A DNA stretch of 64,000 nucleotides from Escherichia phage vB_EcoM_LNA4, in sequence record MZ311864.1. One strand, 5' to 3'. The number at the start of each line of letters is the position of its first letter. Within the stretch, counting starts at the first letter, position 1. Shown piece by piece: positions 43,878 through 51,376 of the stretch. The position numbers were made by a program, and so were the translations under genes. The notes beneath the pieces are model-generated. The model saw only the letters and a list, made by a program, of their open reading frames with translations. It searched no databases and was not told where the DNA came from.

Positions 43878-45893
43878 TTAGAACGGGGTATCATTCTCGA
43901 ATTCTGCGGGGTTAGGAAGCTGAACAGGAGAATCCATAACAGGCGCTGGCACGTTGACCTTGCCTACCGGAGTCTCAAGTTGCAGAGATTGAATCATACC
44001 TTCAGGGCGGAGCATAACCACCCCATCAAGTTTGAACATCCCGTCTTCCCATACCCAACCAGACGCATCAGTGAATTGTCCGTTTTCATCCATGATCATA
44101 GTGTCAGCAACACCAAGTTTTTTGTGTGGGCGGTTCTTCATTACAACCACACGCACACGTCCACGAGAACGGTCTGGCAGTTCTTCTGGTTCAACACCTA
44201 ATACAATCCAGGATAATTGCTCCAGTGCAGCAGAACCACGCAGGTCTTCTTTACGTACAGGATACCAGAAAGGCAACATGTTGCCGTCTTTGTCCTTCGG
44301 TAGCTGAAGTTCCTTACGCTTCATGTGGCTAATGCTGAGAATGAACACATCGTACTGCTTACAGAATGCCGCAAGCTCGGTCATGATGTTGTCCAGATCT
44401 CGACGTTCGTTATCCGACTTAAGGCCAGAGATAACCATGCTGAGGTGGTCAAGGATAATCCACTTACAACCATCCAGGAATACCATCTGCTTCAGCTTCT
44501 GAATCAACTGGTCCGTAGGGATAGAGCCGAAGTGATCAAAGATCTTGATCTTGTCTTCCTTAATCCATCGTTGGTGAATCTCCAGGTGCTGCTCTTCGGT
44601 CAGGAACTGCTCAGGGTCTGCCACGAAAGCTTTAGGGTCAACCTTCAACTCCTCAGCGTACAAGCTGTTTACAGATTCTTCCTCGTCCTCTTCCAGACGG
44701 ATGATCGCAACCTTTTCATGTTCAGTCCAACCATCAAGACGAGGGATGCTCATATCTCGAAGGTAGTTCACAATGGCATACTCGATCTTACGTGAGATTG
44801 TTGACTTACCACCACCAGAAGGGCCAGTTAGTGTCCACAACTCACCAGTACGAGGACCTTTTGTTAACTCATAAAGACGAGGCATACCAGGTAACGGGAC
44901 ACCATCTTTCTTCTTCTTGCGAAGGTTTTCGATGGTAATGTTGCTCAGGCTGATCAGTTTGTCAGGGACATAGCGATCTTCTGCCTTGGAGAACATGTTC
45001 CAGATCTCACGACCCTTACCCGCATCGTACATGTCACGAACGTCTTTAACCCCGGAAGGATCATTTCGTTCATTGGGGTAACGTGCCACAAAGATGTTGT
45101 CTGTCAGCAGGAATGCTGCCACATCGTCTGTTGCTTCTTTACCTTTCTTGACCTTACGTTCCTTTTCCAGAGCGGTTGCTTCATCGTTATCAAAACCGAG
45201 AACAACCTTCTCATAGCCACGAATGAACTTCTCGTTATTGGCAAAGGTATCTACTGCGTTGGCTGTGCCACAGTTTAATCCGACAAACGGTAATGTCGGA
45301 ACACCTGCAATCTCTTCACCGTTCTGAATAGAGGCGATACCTTTCAGAACGCTTGCAGCCCAATCCTTAACACCCTTCGGTGCATTAGGGCTTGCTTGCA
45401 GAGCTTTCACGAACTCAAAACCTGCCTGCCAACCAGCGGTAACATCCCCCTCGCCCTCTACAATGAAGATCTGTTTACGACCTGCGCCCATAGCGGCTTC
45501 GTGTTGACCGAAGAACTGTGAAGCGGCCTTAACAGTCCCCACAACAGAAAAGTGACCTTTCTTCTCTTTCGGCAGGGTCCAGTCACGTTTTTTATATCCA
45601 GTCAGCTTACCGTACTTGTCGTAATATGGCAAATAGGTGGCTGTGATCGTCACACCGTCACTTGGGGATACGGATGAACGGATCTTAAAATACTTTGCTG
45701 CGTCGAGAGAGAGGCTCATTTCAGGAACTGGCAGAATGCGGGTGCCATTGACTACAGATTCCAGGGTCTCTTCTTCACGTTGCTGATAACTCACTCTTCC
45801 TCCACGATTGCCTTTACTTCCAAAATTCTGCGCTTTCGGGTTCTCCTGTCCACCTTGTCGGTAAGCAGCCCAATCCGGACCATTTCCCATCAT
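43878..45893 (-). CDS. DNA primase/helicase (TOPRIM + DnaB-like, T7 gp4-like)
   Basis: TOPRIM IFIVEGEGD and GFDNDEA; Walker A TGPSGGGKST; Walker B WIILDHLS; C-terminal ...EFENDTPF. Confidence 0.85.
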   Translation of the reverse strand: MMGNGPDWAAYRQGGQENPKAQNFGSKGNRGGRVSYQQREEETLESVVNGTRILPVPEMSLSLDAAKYFKIRSSVSPSDGVTITATYLPYYDKYGKLTGYKKRDWTLPKEKKGHFSVVGTVKAASQFFGQHEAAMGAGRKQIFIVEGEGDVTAGWQAGFEFVKALQASPNAPKGVKDWAASVLKGIASIQNGEEIAGVPTLPFVGLNCGTANAVDTFANNEKFIRGYEKVVLGFDNDEATALEKERKVKKGKEATDDVAAFLLTDNIFVARYPNERNDPSGVKDVRDMYDAGKGREIWNMFSKAEDRYVPDKLISLSNITIENLRKKKKDGVPLPGMPRLYELTKGPRTGELWTLTGPSGGGKSTISRKIEYAIVNYLRDMSIPRLDGWTEHEKVAIIRLEEDEEESVNSLYAEELKVDPKAFVADPEQFLTEEQHLEIHQRWIKEDKIKIFDHFGSIPTDQLIQKLKQMVFLDGCKWIILDHLSMVISGLKSDNERRDLDNIMTELAAFCKQYDVFILSISHMKRKELQLPKDKDGNMLPFWYPVRKEDLRGSAALEQLSWIVLGVEPEELPDRSRGRVRVVVMKNRPHKKLGVADTMIMDENGQFTDASGWVWEDGMFKLDGVVMLRPEGMIQSLQLETPVGKVNVPAPVMDSPVQLPNPAEFENDTPF

Positions 45894-46054: not shown

Positions 46055-46747
46055 CTACTTGTTTTCTTGATAGAAAGCCTCTGCAAAACCACGAGGCGTA
46101 CAGCTACGGATGTTCTTAGTCTTGATAGACTTGCCACCACACTTCTTCCATCCGGGATTATCTTTGTGCAATTCCTTCACAGGAAGCTTTGTGGGCTGTT
46201 TTGCACCATTACCCATCCAAATACACGTCTTCTTGTTGTAAGCGTCTTGTGGAGGGTATACATGCGGATACAGAGGGTGTACGTCATCAGGAGGAAGATA
46301 CCCGCCGTAATCCTTTGGATCAAACATGTAATCTGGTTTGCGATACATCGACGAGAGAACTCCAACCGGGTTCTCAAAAGCCCAAGGAACGCCGCATTCA
46401 TTACCCAATTTCTCTACCAGCAGGCATAACTCCATCGCTTCCTTCTGGAAGTTAGGGTTAGCGGCGCGTTTTTTAGCCCAATGTCTTGAACCTGCATTGG
46501 TTAGGTGAGTACACTCTGGGAAGCCAAAGACGAGGTGAACACCTTCACCAACCATCTCTGCGATCTCTGATGCTTGTTCGTTGGTTTTGTCATGGAAAAA
46601 CCACATACCAACCTTAACCAGATTCCCTTCCCGGTGAATGCCGGGGGAATGCTGACCATCAAATGTCCAGACTTCATAGCCAGCCCTTAACCAGGGCTGT
46701 GCCATTACAGAGGTGTAATCATAAAGAATTATGATCTTCTTTGTCAA
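46055..46747 (-). CDS. C5-cytosine methyltransferase-like protein (divergent, function uncertain)
   Basis: GFPEC (cf. motif IV GFPCQ) and AFENPVG (cf. motif VI ENV) at MTase-like spacing; no glycine-rich motif I. Confidence 0.35.
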   Translation of the reverse strand: MTKKIIILYDYTSVMAQPWLRAGYEVWTFDGQHSPGIHREGNLVKVGMWFFHDKTNEQASEIAEMVGEGVHLVFGFPECTHLTNAGSRHWAKKRAANPNFQKEAMELCLLVEKLGNECGVPWAFENPVGVLSSMYRKPDYMFDPKDYGGYLPPDDVHPLYPHVYPPQDAYNKKTCIWMGNGAKQPTKLPVKELHKDNPGWKKCGGKSIKTKNIRSCTPRGFAEAFYQENK

Positions 46748-46757
46748 TCAACCTCCA

Positions 46758-47021
46758 TCAATGAAGAACTCGGACAACAGTCCCGTTCTCAATTTTATAT
46801 TTTGCCTCTGCGGTAACCTGATGGTCTGGCTCGCCATTGATCATCATCGCGATGTTATGGGTTGTTCTGACTAGGGTGTAGTTCAGATACCCGTCTGCTT
46901 CATGCTGTGATACGATGGTAAAACCTTCGTCCAGCAGTTCAGCCAATTCTGATTCGATATCCGCTTTTTCTCGCTCACTGATCTTGAACTCAACCAGACG
47001 GACAGTGTTCTTTCCAGCCAT
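46758..47021 (-). CDS. hypothetical protein
   Basis: 87 aa ORF. Confidence 0.45.
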   Translation of the reverse strand: MAGKNTVRLVEFKISEREKADIESELAELLDEGFTIVSQHEADGYLNYTLVRTTHNIAMMINGEPDHQVTAEAKYKIENGTVVRVLH

Positions 47022-47302: not shown

Positions 47303-47796
47303 ATTGCCATCTCCAGATCTGACTTCAGTTGCTCATTCTCTTCAATCAGTGCCTTGATGAAGTAAATCAGGTGAGTTGCTGCACTGTTGCAACCATCCCG
47401 GTTAAGCTCGTCGCTTACTCGTTCTTTTACTTCCTTCCCGTATCCGCTGAGGTCTTCCTTTAAATAGGTACTCACAGCCTTCCACGCATTGCTTTGGCTA
47501 ACGCGAGAGTCTAACTCTTTCAGCAAACGCAAGATATTCTCAGGACAAGCCGTGGCGATGTAGGTTGCATCAACATCGTTATTCCACTGGGACAGATTAC
47601 CTGTGCTCGCATGACGTACAGCAGGCCCCATGTTCGGATCAGTAATGAAGACAGTCTCCATATTCTTATCATCGGAGAAAGCCACCATTGAATGACCGTG
47701 CGAATCGATCCACCACTGCCCCGGTGTTGCATCCTTTGCCAGACGCTCAAGGTCTTCACGGAGCTTCTCGATTGAACGTTCCTTATTCATTATCAA
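47299..47796 (-). CDS. Ead/Ea22-like protein
   Basis: N-terminal coiled coil then ATPGQWW motif. Confidence 0.4.
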   Translation of the reverse strand: MIMNKERSIEKLREDLERLAKDATPGQWWIDSHGHSMVAFSDDKNMETVFITDPNMGPAVRHASTGNLSQWNNDVDATYIATACPENILRLLKELDSRVSQSNAWKAVSTYLKEDLSGYGKEVKERVSDELNRDGCNSAATHLIYFIKALIEENEQLKSDLEMAI

Positions 47797-48106
47797 CGCC
47801 CTCGTAACGGGACATCGTTAATTGTGTGATGCCAAGAGCCACAGGCTCAGTAGTATCCACCACGAAGGTAACAGTCAGGTTATCTGTAGATTTAGAATCA
47901 CTCAGATCCACAACGATAAAGTCACCCACTTCCGGTGCGTCAGCGCCCATGTCGAGGAAAACAACAGCCTCAGCATATTCACCATCACCGATCACACGGA
48001 GCGTGATATCGTTACCAGGCCCACGGGTGGTAAAGTCGTATACACGCACCTGCTTAGGCGCTTCATCTTCTTTGGCAAACAGCCAGTTAAACAGCTTTTT
48101 CAGCAT
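47783..48106 (-). CDS. hypothetical protein
   Basis: 107 aa acidic ORF. Confidence 0.45.
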   Translation of the reverse strand: MLKKLFNWLFAKEDEAPKQVRVYDFTTRGPGNDITLRVIGDGEYAEAVVFLDMGADAPEVGDFIVVDLSDSKSTDNLTVTFVVDTTEPVALGITQLTMSRYEGVDNE

Positions 48107-48788: not shown

Positions 48789-50096
48789 CTATTTGCCAGG
48801 GAAAGTTCTTTCGTAGAAGTCTACAATACGTTGGTCAACAATGATATCTTTTTCTTTGACCTTACGCAAGAGTCTTAAACCGTTTGCAGTCGTAGCACGG
48901 CTAAAGGCGACGTATGCCATACCGGGTGCGAATGCTCCATACCCAAAGTCTACATTAAGGAGCGGCAATGTCAAGCCCTGTGCCTTATGAATTGTCACCG
49001 CCCATCCTAAACGGATAGGGAGTGCTCGATATTCACCAATGGTGATCTTCTCAAGCTCTTCGGTGATAGTCCCATCAGTATTACGGACCTTGATCGGGTT
49101 GTACTCAACGTTCTCCCACACATGCGGTTCAACATCAACAACTTTACCACACTCAAGGCGCACCTTAACACTCTCTTTTCCAAGCTCAATCACCTCACCG
49201 CGCGAGCCGTTAACATACTCTGGCTCTTCAAACCCCTTCGGGTCGTTCACGGTGATCATTACCTTGGCACCCTCCTTCAGATATAACTCCTCCGGGACAG
49301 GTTTTTGGGTGAAATCGCCAGTCTTTTTCGCAGAATAAAGCACAGGAAGTCCCGGAATTTCTTCAAAGCGCTTCTTGTTTACCTTATCCGCAGCAGCGTT
49401 GGTGGATGTGATCGTAATCGCATCTGGGATTGCCTGACCACCACGGTAACAGACACCGTTAAGTTCCCTCACAATATCAGGAATACGCTGTCCACGACGA
49501 AGACAGTTAAGCAACCCTGAGAAACGCGTGCTGTTCTGGCGATAAACCTTCTCAAGAATAACCGGGTAAGGGTTAAGCTCTTGCCACGTATCGGAGAAGC
49601 AACACAATTCCGTTGGGTGGAACTGGAAGTACATTTCCTTTTCCGCCTCTGTGAGGACAGGTGGGTTCTGGAAGAAGTCCCCAAACATGCAAATCTGCAA
49701 ACCACCGAAAGGTTTGTTTGGTTCTCTACGTGCAATACGGCACTTCATATCCATTTCCCAAAGCTTATCAGCACGAAACATACTGATCTCATCAATGATT
49801 ATGATCTTTAATGCTTTGCTTTTCAAAAGTTTTTTTACTTTAGGCTTTAATTCTTCCGCTTCTTTCTTTGTCGCAACACCCATTGATAATCTAAACGCAC
49901 GGTGAGCCGTCATACCATCAACGTTAATGGCAGCAGCCCCCGTAGGGGCTACAGTTAGAACGGAACCTGCGTAAAGAGATTGGATGGTCTTAATGGTGTA
50001 GCTTTTGCCACTACCTCCGGGACCCGTAACGAATACGTTGTCACCGGACATGATAGCACCAAGGGCTGCTTCAACGCCCACGCCAAAATCAGACAT
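48789..50096 (-). CDS. SF1 DNA helicase, Dda/RecD-like
   Basis: Walker A VTGPGGSGKS; Walker B IIIDEISM; GDFFQNPPV; motif VI TIHKAQGLT; ATG at 50096 with GGAGG RBS. Confidence 0.8.
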   Translation of the reverse strand: MSDFGVGVEAALGAIMSGDNVFVTGPGGSGKSYTIKTIQSLYAGSVLTVAPTGAAAINVDGMTAHRAFRLSMGVATKKEAEELKPKVKKLLKSKALKIIIIDEISMFRADKLWEMDMKCRIARREPNKPFGGLQICMFGDFFQNPPVLTEAEKEMYFQFHPTELCCFSDTWQELNPYPVILEKVYRQNSTRFSGLLNCLRRGQRIPDIVRELNGVCYRGGQAIPDAITITSTNAAADKVNKKRFEEIPGLPVLYSAKKTGDFTQKPVPEELYLKEGAKVMITVNDPKGFEEPEYVNGSRGEVIELGKESVKVRLECGKVVDVEPHVWENVEYNPIKVRNTDGTITEELEKITIGEYRALPIRLGWAVTIHKAQGLTLPLLNVDFGYGAFAPGMAYVAFSRATTANGLRLLRKVKEKDIIVDQRIVDFYERTFPGK

Positions 50097-51376
50097 CAAT
50101 CCTCCTTAGTTTCTTCTTCCAGGTAGATTTGTTCCAAGATTTCACCTGCTGCACCAATTACCAGAATATCTGGTGCGCCCACTGGCTTGTCCACACCCGT
50201 CAACACCTCATAACGACAGCAACGGCACTTCTGCTGGTTGTAGTCGTAAGGAACACTTACAACGTCAGCCGGGTTAACAGCTACCTCGATAAGGCTGTTA
50301 CCAACAAAGCCGCCTGCGTATTCCAGAGAGGCAATGTGCAGACCTTGGCTACAGGAGACACTTGGATTATCTTCAACCATGTTTCGTGGCATAGAAATAA
50401 TCTGGCCTTTGTAGTTTGGAACCTTCTTGGTGCGGGTATCGCGAGGACCATCAGCAGTGTTGGTGATCTTCTTGTACGCCTTAACGTCACCATTTTCAAG
50501 GATCTCAAGGTCGTTGTGCTGAATAAAATCATACAGCATCTTCACAGAGGCATAAGACGGGTTGTGCATCAGCTTCTGCATGAACTTCACATAACGCTCA
50601 TCGAAAGTATCATTGTTGATATCGTTGAGGATACGTTTTGCAAGAGTGGTCTCTTGCTTCTGCCCGTGCCAGTACAGAACACCATCCAATAGCTTCAGGT
50701 CTGGACCGAGATCAACGACCTTCTCTGCCTTCGCTTCCTTCCCTGCTTCGATCAGGGCGATAGCCCCATCAATGTCGCCCTCAATCAACAGCAGACCGAC
50801 ATCCGGGAAGATATCGTTGTCACGGTTAATCGTGTGCTGAGTACCATCAGGCATAGAGATGCAGACGTTACCGGGAGTCATGATGACCACAGGGTCTTTC
50901 TTCTCGGTGACCTCTTCGTCGAAATATGTTTTCGGTGCAGACTCTTCAACAACCACACTCACAGGGACCTTGTAAGGCTCCGGCAATAGTGTGACCGTTG
51001 CTTCGATATGCAGGTCGGTTACTTCGAAAGTGACTTCCCAGCGTTTTCCCTGCTTACCAAGATCCTTAACAACACCGTAGTTTACCCCCCGGTCACCCTG
51101 GGCGTGGTCAATAATCTTAGCATTCTTTTTGCCCTTTGCAAAGTCACGGGCCTCACCACGACTTCCGAAGAACATAGAAGACCGAGCAGGAACGGCTTCA
51201 GAGGTGAAGCTCATGTCAACTTCTGGGGGCTTAGAAGCCCCTTGACTATCTTTTGGTACAACCATCCAACGGCCTTCTGCCAGCACCGCTGGTGATACAC
51301 CACGGTCTACAACCTTCATACCGTTGAGGGATGCGTACTCACGCGCCTTACTGCGGGATTCAAAAAGATTACTCAT
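50096..51376 (-). CDS. rIIB: rIIB-like protein (tentative)
   Basis: 426 aa ORF translationally coupled (ATGA) downstream of the rIIA-like gene; assignment by synteny only. Confidence 0.4.
   Translation of the reverse strand: MSNLFESRSKAREYASLNGMKVVDRGVSPAVLAEGRWMVVPKDSQGASKPPEVDMSFTSEAVPARSSMFFGSRGEARDFAKGKKNAKIIDHAQGDRGVNYGVVKDLGKQGKRWEVTFEVTDLHIEATVTLLPEPYKVPVSVVVEESAPKTYFDEEVTEKKDPVVIMTPGNVCISMPDGTQHTINRDNDIFPDVGLLLIEGDIDGAIALIEAGKEAKAEKVVDLGPDLKLLDGVLYWHGQKQETTLAKRILNDINNDTFDERYVKFMQKLMHNPSYASVKMLYDFIQHNDLEILENGDVKAYKKITNTADGPRDTRTKKVPNYKGQIISMPRNMVEDNPSVSCSQGLHIASLEYAGGFVGNSLIEVAVNPADVVSVPYDYNQQKCRCCRYEVLTGVDKPVGAPDILVIGAAGEILEQIYLEEETKED

Follow-up and report, generated by a model that had tools for sequence, protein, structure and literature searches.

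The product of the gene at 46055..46747 (minus strand) of the window, by which we mean the whole 64,000-nt stretch of DNA analysed here, is a small cytosine-C5 DNA methyltransferase of divergent sequence; its family is very widespread among phages, and the finding is genuine though ordinary. Taking sequence comparison, a structure model and analogy together, we put at about 80% the probability that the protein is an active orphan SAM-dependent DNA cytosine-C5 methyltransferase of a compact, Dcm-like phage and prophage family. Its fold, its family membership and the conservation of its catalytic residues under strong purifying selection are established here; the activity, cofactor and biological role of the window protein are inferred. 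An earlier note, made from the letters of the DNA, had described a divergent C5-methyltransferase-like protein, and this description agrees with both the fold comparison and the weak, in-register profile alignments presented below.

The gene lies within a leftward-transcribed replication block, between primase/helicase and helicase genes, in a region of the window that is 84-96% identical in DNA to Seunavirus genomes (Vequintavirinae), namely Cronobacter phage GAP31, Enterobacter phage EC152 and Escherichia phage 4MG. With GAP31_259, named 'DNA methyltransferase' in RefSeq, the window protein shares 99.6% identity. The gene and its surroundings are as follows:

46055..46747, minus strand: coding sequence of 230 aa with a TTG start (from the ORF list), compact Dcm-like cytosine-C5 DNA methyltransferase, orthologue of GAP31_259
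46752..46756, minus strand: Shine-Dalgarno sequence GGAGG, four bases 5' of the TTG start (read from the sequence)
43878-45893: primase/helicase, neighbour of the methyltransferase gene in the replication block
Between primase/helicase and methyltransferase gene: a 48-aa ORF
Between methyltransferase gene and helicase: several small ORFs
48789-50099: helicase, neighbour in the replication block

TTG is the true start of the coding sequence, since GGAGG stands four bases upstream and the LTKKIIILYDYTSV codons are kept in relatives, although the GenBank records annotate a later ATG (Met15). These codons encode strand 1 of the predicted fold. The stop codon of the preceding ORF (46758-46760) falls just past GGAGG, ten bases before the TTG. 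Three deposited orthologues (L009 1356-2060, L010 2005-2709 and L007 1524-2246) are annotated from an internal ATG that corresponds to Met15 of the window protein (the equivalent position in Enterobacter phage FENT2), an annotation that removes strand 1 and the motif I loop; because the upstream codons are conserved, the non-ATG start is real in these orthologues as well.

Some further features of the locus were recorded. Two of the small ORFs, 46758-47021 (GAP31_260) and 47783-48106 (GAP31_262), carry the RefSeq label 'DNA ligase', which looks implausible at approximately 90-107 aa; other records call them hypothetical. Cronobacter phage EspYZU15 has an extra 642-nt hypothetical ORF (L010 1359-2000) between the methyltransferase and the primase/helicase, absent at that place in the window and in GAP31; this ORF is possibly a mobile element, for instance a homing endonuclease. 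At 46718-46747 (minus strand), running from the TTG start into the gene, there is an 11/12 match to the sigma-70 consensus (TTGACA, 18 nt, TATGAT). This is probably a chance match, because promoter-like sites are no commoner than in shuffled sequence (9 sites vs 8.7 expected); the promoter and terminator scan as a whole was at chance level.

Membership of the family is clear. PHROG 757 ('DNA methyltransferase'; pVOG VOG4567) matches residues 1-230 with an E-value of 2.1e-79 which, together with the C5-methyltransferase fold of the model, places the likeness beyond chance. All family residues are found in the query: F-P-x-C-T (F76/P77/C79/T80), E-N-P (E125/N126/P127), D-x-Y-x-K-x-T-x-x-W (D168/Y170/K172/T174/W177) and R-S-x-T-P-R-G-F (R214/S215/T217/P218/R219/G220/F221). 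Homologues were detected by tblastn in 1,545 of 50,697 phage records, approximately 3% of deposited phage genomes, including phages of Escherichia, Klebsiella, Salmonella, Campylobacter and Vibrio; Drexlerviridae, Vequintavirinae and P2-like prophages are among the carriers. Many homologues go by Dcm, C5 methylase or 'Dcm-like C5 cytosine methyltransferase' in their records. Searching 1.84 billion cluster representatives with a profile returned 1,877 clusters at E <=1e-3, nearly all of 200-260 residues.

Curated domain libraries give a different picture. Pfam has no match to the query even at E <=10, PF00145 (DNA_methylase) included, none of the 120 homologues listed (0/120) has a precomputed Pfam domain, and the NCBIfam search of the query gave nothing meaningful. 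Searches of PDB sequences, whether with the query alone or with family profiles, likewise produced nothing significant, the best match being Dnmt2 (E 0.62) in the correct register; in the profile search, the family's fPpCtdL aligns with SPPCQPF of Dnmt2. Because Pfam and NCBIfam miss the family, readers working from sequence alone and pipelines built on these libraries can be expected to go on marking it as odd or hypothetical. The protein is nevertheless a routine member of an annotated, partly characterised phage family that these libraries miss. It is also already recognised: RefSeq and several papers call it a DNA or cytosine methyltransferase, and Vequintavirinae phage papers term a homologue a cytosine methylase from HHpred evidence.

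Several homologues have unusual architectures. Inteins favour sites such as the catalytic cysteine of motif IV, and a 548-aa homologue (P0263) carries a Hint and LAGLIDADG intein exactly between residue 78 and the catalytic cysteine, with the junctions ...FGFPP / CFTGDTLV...IVHN / CTNLSVSG...; given its insertion directly before the cysteine, the catalytic residue doubles as the +1 splicing residue. Three others (P0253, P0255 and P0259; 401-453 aa) look eukaryotic or giant-virus-like and have N-terminal low-complexity extensions of approximately 180 residues, rich in Ala, Pro, Ser and Glu and without a Pfam match; P0259 lacks the catalytic cysteine (APPGRDL). In BFVD, the compact methyltransferase fold occurs inside proteins of 1,100-1,400 residues from uncultured Caudovirales phages (A0A6J5SE15 and A0A6J5NPY6), one of which is annotated with a helicase/UvrB N-terminal domain.

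We obtained an AlphaFold2 model from 41 homologues with a mean pLDDT of 91 and a pTM of 0.89, and this model has a SAM-methyltransferase fold with C5-methyltransferase topology. Foldseek against the PDB places the catalytic domains of DNMT3A, DNMT3B and DNMT1 first (E approximately 1e-6, probability 1.0), and predicted viral structures agree with the PDB fold matches. The fold comparison scored as follows:

DNMT3B: 13.6
Carboxymethyltransferase CmoX (8yf3): 12.3
DNMT3A: 11.8
Prophage methyltransferase 3g7u: 11.6
M.HhaI: 10.7
M.HaeIII: 10.4
M.MpeI: 10.4
DNMT1: 10.0
Unrelated Rossmann-fold dehydrogenases: 9.9 or lower

Alignments with hhalign, in which M.HhaI, M.HaeIII and DNMT3A entered as single sequences and the Dcm profile came from a database search, match residues 3-88 weakly and in register to motifs I-IV of M.HaeIII (E 7e-5) and DNMT3A (E 2.4e-4). 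M.HhaI as a single sequence reached E 0.16 against the family profile, and the profile of E. coli Dcm orthologues aligned weakly (E 0.017), over motifs IV-VI only. The in-register matches and the methyltransferase fold, predicted by AlphaFold2 and recognised by Foldseek, support the structural part of the earlier note's reading, for which it had proposed a remote homology search as a check.

Within this fold, the motifs could be assigned as listed here (all on the minus strand):

46691..46738, minus strand: residues 4-19, KIIILYDYTSVMAQPW, strand 1 and loop, degenerate motif I without glycine
46649..46675, minus strand: residues 25-33, EVWTFDGQH, last part of strand 2, with Asp30 as candidate acidic residue of motif II
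46508..46525, minus strand: residues 75-80, GFPECT, motif IV with the predicted nucleophile Cys79 and Glu78 for the usual Pro
46361..46381, minus strand: residues 123-129, AFENPVG, ENV-type motif VI, in which Glu125 is the candidate donor of a proton to cytosine N3
46211..46246, minus strand: residues 168-179, DAYNKKTCIWMG, motif VIII-like strand with Lys172/Lys173 for R-x-R
46139..46210, minus strand: residues 180-203, short variable segment in the place of a target-recognition domain
46070..46138, minus strand: residues 204-226, GGKSIKTKNIRSCTPRGFAEAFY, conserved C-terminal block, motif IX and/or motif X

Conservation was counted in two sets, 122 diverse representatives of the family and 130 PEC-type cluster representatives sharing 45-88% identity with the query (the PEC clade). 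The catalytic core stands out in both. GFPEC occupies residues 75-79 (46511-46525 of the window), and motif IV of the family reads F-P-x-C-T, with Pro77 in 113 and Cys79 in 115 of the 122 representatives; at position 78 there are 89 Pro, 15 Glu, 11 Val and 4 Asp, and Thr and Ser also occur. In the alignments Cys79 falls on C71 of M.HaeIII, on the PC cysteine of DNMT3A and of Dcm and on the cysteine of PPCQ in Dnmt2, and 129/130 PEC-clade members keep it. The query retains the conserved Pro at -2 from the cysteine (P-x-C) and has Glu at the Pro position of the Pro-Cys dipeptide. Since F-P-E-C-T lines up with G-P-P-C-Q in M.HaeIII and with S-P-P-C-Q in Dnmt2, the cysteine is not displaced, and PEC is PPC with its second Pro replaced by Glu. 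The PEC that the earlier note gave in place of PCQ is present as described. In motif VI, E-N-P (125-127) aligns with ENV of E. coli Dcm, E125 is found in 120/122 family representatives, and E125, N126 and P127 are each present in 130/130 of the PEC clade. The spacing of motifs IV and VI, also remarked on in the note, is 46 residues from Cys79 to Glu125, as against 47 from PCQ (176) to ENV (224) in E. coli Dcm.

On the cofactor side, the query has Y-D-Y-T-S-V in place of the F-x-G-x-G loop, and residues 1-22 contain no glycine at all. The earlier claim that motif I is lacking nonetheless goes too far: strand 1 and the loop are there, with KIIILYDYTSVMAQPW in register with ISLFSGAGG of M.HaeIII and LSLFDGIATG of DNMT3A in the hhalign alignments, and in the model residues 4-8 form a strand and residues 17-21 a helix. 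The family consensus for this motif, SLFDxTG.M..PW, itself contains a single glycine and is similar to SLFDGIATG of DNMT3A. That glycine, at position 13, is present in 88/122 family representatives and kept in 115/130 of the PEC clade; the GAP31 subclade has Ser13. Each of D10, T12, P18 and W19 is kept by at least 123 of the 130 PEC-clade representatives. Further along, the model has a strand at residues 25-30, and D30 occurs in 111/122 family and 129/130 PEC-clade representatives; judged by its position, Asp30 is a candidate for the acidic residue of motif II, which would contact the ribose of the cofactor.

Rather than the Q-x-R-x-R of motif VIII, the query has Y-N-K-K-T (family Y-x-K-K/x-T-x-x-W), in which Y170, K172, T174 and W177 are near-invariant (K172 in 128/130) and which leads into a model strand at residues 174-179. 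Y-N-K-K-T is probably the functional analogue of Q-x-R-x-R, as the homologous lysines are among the four residues mutated together in the inactive control of phage K42 'Dcm', a relative discussed below. The segment that follows is the least conserved, and the model is least confident in this part (pLDDT 68 at residues 201-210). From K172 to T217 (TPRG) there are only 45 residues, compared to 125 from R278 to TPRE in E. coli Dcm, so that the stretch from motif VIII to the C-terminal block is approximately 80 residues shorter than in that enzyme; the note had rightly judged the protein too short for a target-recognition domain. We found no GN[AS]V of motif X in the query, and the protein ends 10 residues after TPRG (217-220). 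The C-terminal block, with model helices at 208-214 and 219-229, is strongly conserved: G204, G205, S207, R214, S215, T217, P218 and R219 each occur in at least 126 of the 130 PEC-clade representatives (R214, S215, T217, P218 and R219 in 127). Longer hhalign alignments forced over this block gave unreliable registers for motifs IX and X.

From these assignments a reaction of the usual C5 type can be proposed. Cys79 would attack C6 of a flipped-out cytosine while Glu125 of the ENP motif would protonate N3, with Lys172 and Lys173 standing in for the motif VIII arginines, after which the methyl group would move from the cofactor to C5. The cofactor may be held by the degenerate motif I loop (Asp10), Asp30 and the C-terminal Arg214/Ser215 block. 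As Glu replaces Pro and the motif I loop is free of glycine, the enzyme may depart from canonical ones in how it binds the cofactor and in the geometry of its catalytic loop. The gene's place in the replication block means that the protein probably methylates replicating phage DNA; it would be co-expressed with the replication genes, and its role would most plausibly be to block host restriction enzymes.

Selection on the gene is strong, with dN/dS of 0.014-0.07 at dS of up to 1.6 (Nei-Gojobori; window gene versus orthologues of Seunavirus and other Vequintavirinae). In the window itself, tblastn detected neither a D12-class Dam nor a canonical Dcm, and ARAGORN found no tRNA genes. CCWGG occurs 110 times, an observed/expected ratio of 0.62 under a Markov model and approximately 1.07 from base composition, which is uninformative on the target. 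CTAG is scarce in the 64,000 nt, with 25 sites observed against 74 (Markov) or 247 (base composition) expected.

The contexts of relatives are also of interest. Enterobacter phage FENT2 (Seunavirus, L007 1524-2246) has a PPC-type allele at the syntenic locus, which is 58% identical to the homologue of Warwickvirus atuna (Drexlerviridae) and 45% identical to the window protein. Because this allele sits at the same locus, it suggests that PEC and PPC types are interchangeable, in a cassette-like exchange within one phage genus. A PEC-type homologue (P0119, 61% identical) is encoded in a P2/186-like prophage, where it directly follows a D12-class Dam gene and precedes replication gene A; in the P2/186-like prophage recorded on a Rahnella/Rouxiella contig (RQVU01000026; L011 7138-8696) the stop codon of the D12-class Dam gene overlaps the start of the PEC-type Dcm-like gene, the two genes together lying upstream of replication gene A; and one 563-aa protein (P0237) is a fusion of a Dcm-like domain and a Dam domain. 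Vsr and restriction enzyme genes, which would have been indirect evidence for 5mC, were sought beside bacterial homologues and not found, the contexts being one prophage and one mobile-element-like region.

The departures from canonical motifs do invite other readings, and the earlier note had itself offered an inactive protein with the methyltransferase fold. This might be a DNA-binding or regulatory factor, or a DNMT3L-like partner, that has lost cofactor binding, as could be imagined from the glycine-free motif I loop with Ser13 for the usual Gly, from the Glu for Pro before the catalytic cysteine and from the failure of every curated methyltransferase model to match. We consider it improbable, because a degenerate enzyme is not expected to keep its catalytic residues, whereas Cys, ENP, K172 and the R/S/T/P/R block are near-invariant in the 130 PEC-clade representatives down to 45% identity. 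Most of that clade (115 of 130) also retains Gly13, in a sister phage the locus is occupied instead by a PPC-type allele close to the tested enzyme, and the low dN/dS indicates selection, though alone it is no proof of catalysis. The same peculiarities could be taken in another direction, with the PEC clade as functionally distinct C5 transferases that use another cofactor (host carboxy-SAM) or have little or no sequence specificity; the Glu for Pro, the glycine-free loop of the GAP31 subclade and the near-absent recognition domain could then reflect a remodelled active site or cofactor pocket. This is unlikely in our judgement; if true, it would mean an unusual pattern of phage genome modification rather than ordinary Dcm-type CCWGG methylation.

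A non-canonical modifying enzyme had been suggested as well, and here the most concrete version would be a C5 transferase that adds a non-methyl group, e.g., carboxymethyl as in CmoX, or that performs the first step of a cytosine hypermodification. Enterobacterial hosts make carboxy-SAM via CmoA, so a phage synthase would not be needed for this. The CmoX match reflects the common C5-methyltransferase fold, M.HhaI, M.HaeIII and DNMT3 matching equally well, and none of the annotated neighbours of the window gene resembles CmoA or another cofactor synthase, a ligase or CmoY-like protein, a TET or other dioxygenase, a glycosyltransferase, Vsr or a restriction enzyme. Moreover, the 45%-identical K42-type homologue, which has the same C-terminal block, raised 5mC in DNA in E. 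coli, a host that supplies carboxy-SAM. The idea of a non-methyl transfer is thus very unlikely to be correct. We give very little weight to a methyltransferase acting on another substrate, be it tRNA or other RNA (Dnmt2-like), single-stranded DNA or host DNA for takeover. Dnmt2 does turn up in both the structural and the profile comparisons, a protein with next to no target-recognition domain would suit a structure-specific rather than a sequence-specific substrate, and the sole substrate reported for a family member is the stem-loop of a retron msDNA (bioRxiv 10.1101/2023.08.16.553469); the Dam linkage and the order of the structural matches fit an RNA substrate less well. The reading of an active, orphan DNA cytosine-C5 methyltransferase is the one we retain; the unusual or dead enzyme proposed in the earlier note finds no support.

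The wider relevance is chiefly practical: such methyltransferases influence sensitivity to restriction systems, which makes the family relevant to phage therapy, and at least one member triggers abortive infection by retron Ec86. The remaining curiosities of the window protein are the Pro-to-Glu change beside the catalytic cysteine, the glycine-free cofactor loop and how a target is chosen with 230 residues. Answers on target choice or on the effect of the Pro-to-Glu change would not overturn present understanding.

Compared to known enzymes, the likeness to the catalytic domains of DNMT3A and DNMT3B is at the level of fold, with 12-17% sequence identity, and does not imply the same subfamily; the DNMT3 enzymes differ in their canonical Pro-Cys, motif VIII arginines, longer recognition region and regulatory domains. 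Where E. coli Dcm, M.HhaI and M.HaeIII have F.G.G, P-C-Q and Q.R.R, the window protein has Y-D-Y-T-S, P-E-C-T and Y-N-K-K. CmoX (PDB 8yf3) is a 333-aa protein with a full-size recognition domain that uses carboxy-SAM via Arg350, and its genes typically stand beside those for CmoA and the ligase CmoY (PMC12783734); neither of these is annotated beside the window gene. The criteria used to search for CmoX were an SPPC motif and Arg350, in a setting of CmoA and ligase linkage (PMC12783734), and in the window protein the motif reads FPEC.

The closest characterised system is phage K42 (Drexlerviridae, a relative of KarlJaspers), whose 'Dcm' is the trigger of retron Ec86 (bioRxiv 10.1101/2023.08.16.553469; published as Cell Rep 43:114857, 2024). 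All K42 mutants that escaped the retron had a disrupted 711-bp 'dcm' gene, and expression of this gene raised 5mC in msDNA as measured by LC-MS, while a C82A/E128A/K175A/K176A quadruple mutant used as control gave no such rise (bioRxiv 10.1101/2023.08.16.553469). These assays were done in E. coli MG1655, a host with its own dcm gene, and CCWGG as the target was assumed from the name 'Dcm' and tested only via mutation of the msDNA site (bioRxiv 10.1101/2023.08.16.553469). The assay data in the family belong to this K42 type, a PPC-type enzyme 45% identical to the window protein. We took the gene of Warwickvirus atuna to be of the K42 type indirectly, from its length of exactly 711 bp and its residue numbering, with C82, E128, K175 and K176 all present. 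Copies with 89-100% DNA identity occur in 101 phage records, nearly all from Escherichia phages of approximately 50 kb; one of these is the BASEL phage FritzSarasin, in which the gene is labelled 'Dcm-like C5 cytosine methyltransferase'. The two types differ in motif IV (PPC versus PEC), in motif I (SLFDGSG with two glycines versus LYDYTS) and in the region from strand 2 to motif IV, where insertions and deletions separate them. The atuna protein (236 versus 230 aa) is 45% identical to the window protein over its full length (E 1e-65), C82, E128, K175 and K176 correspond to C79, E125, K172 and K173, and both proteins share the C-terminal block GGKS..TK.IRS.TPRGFA.
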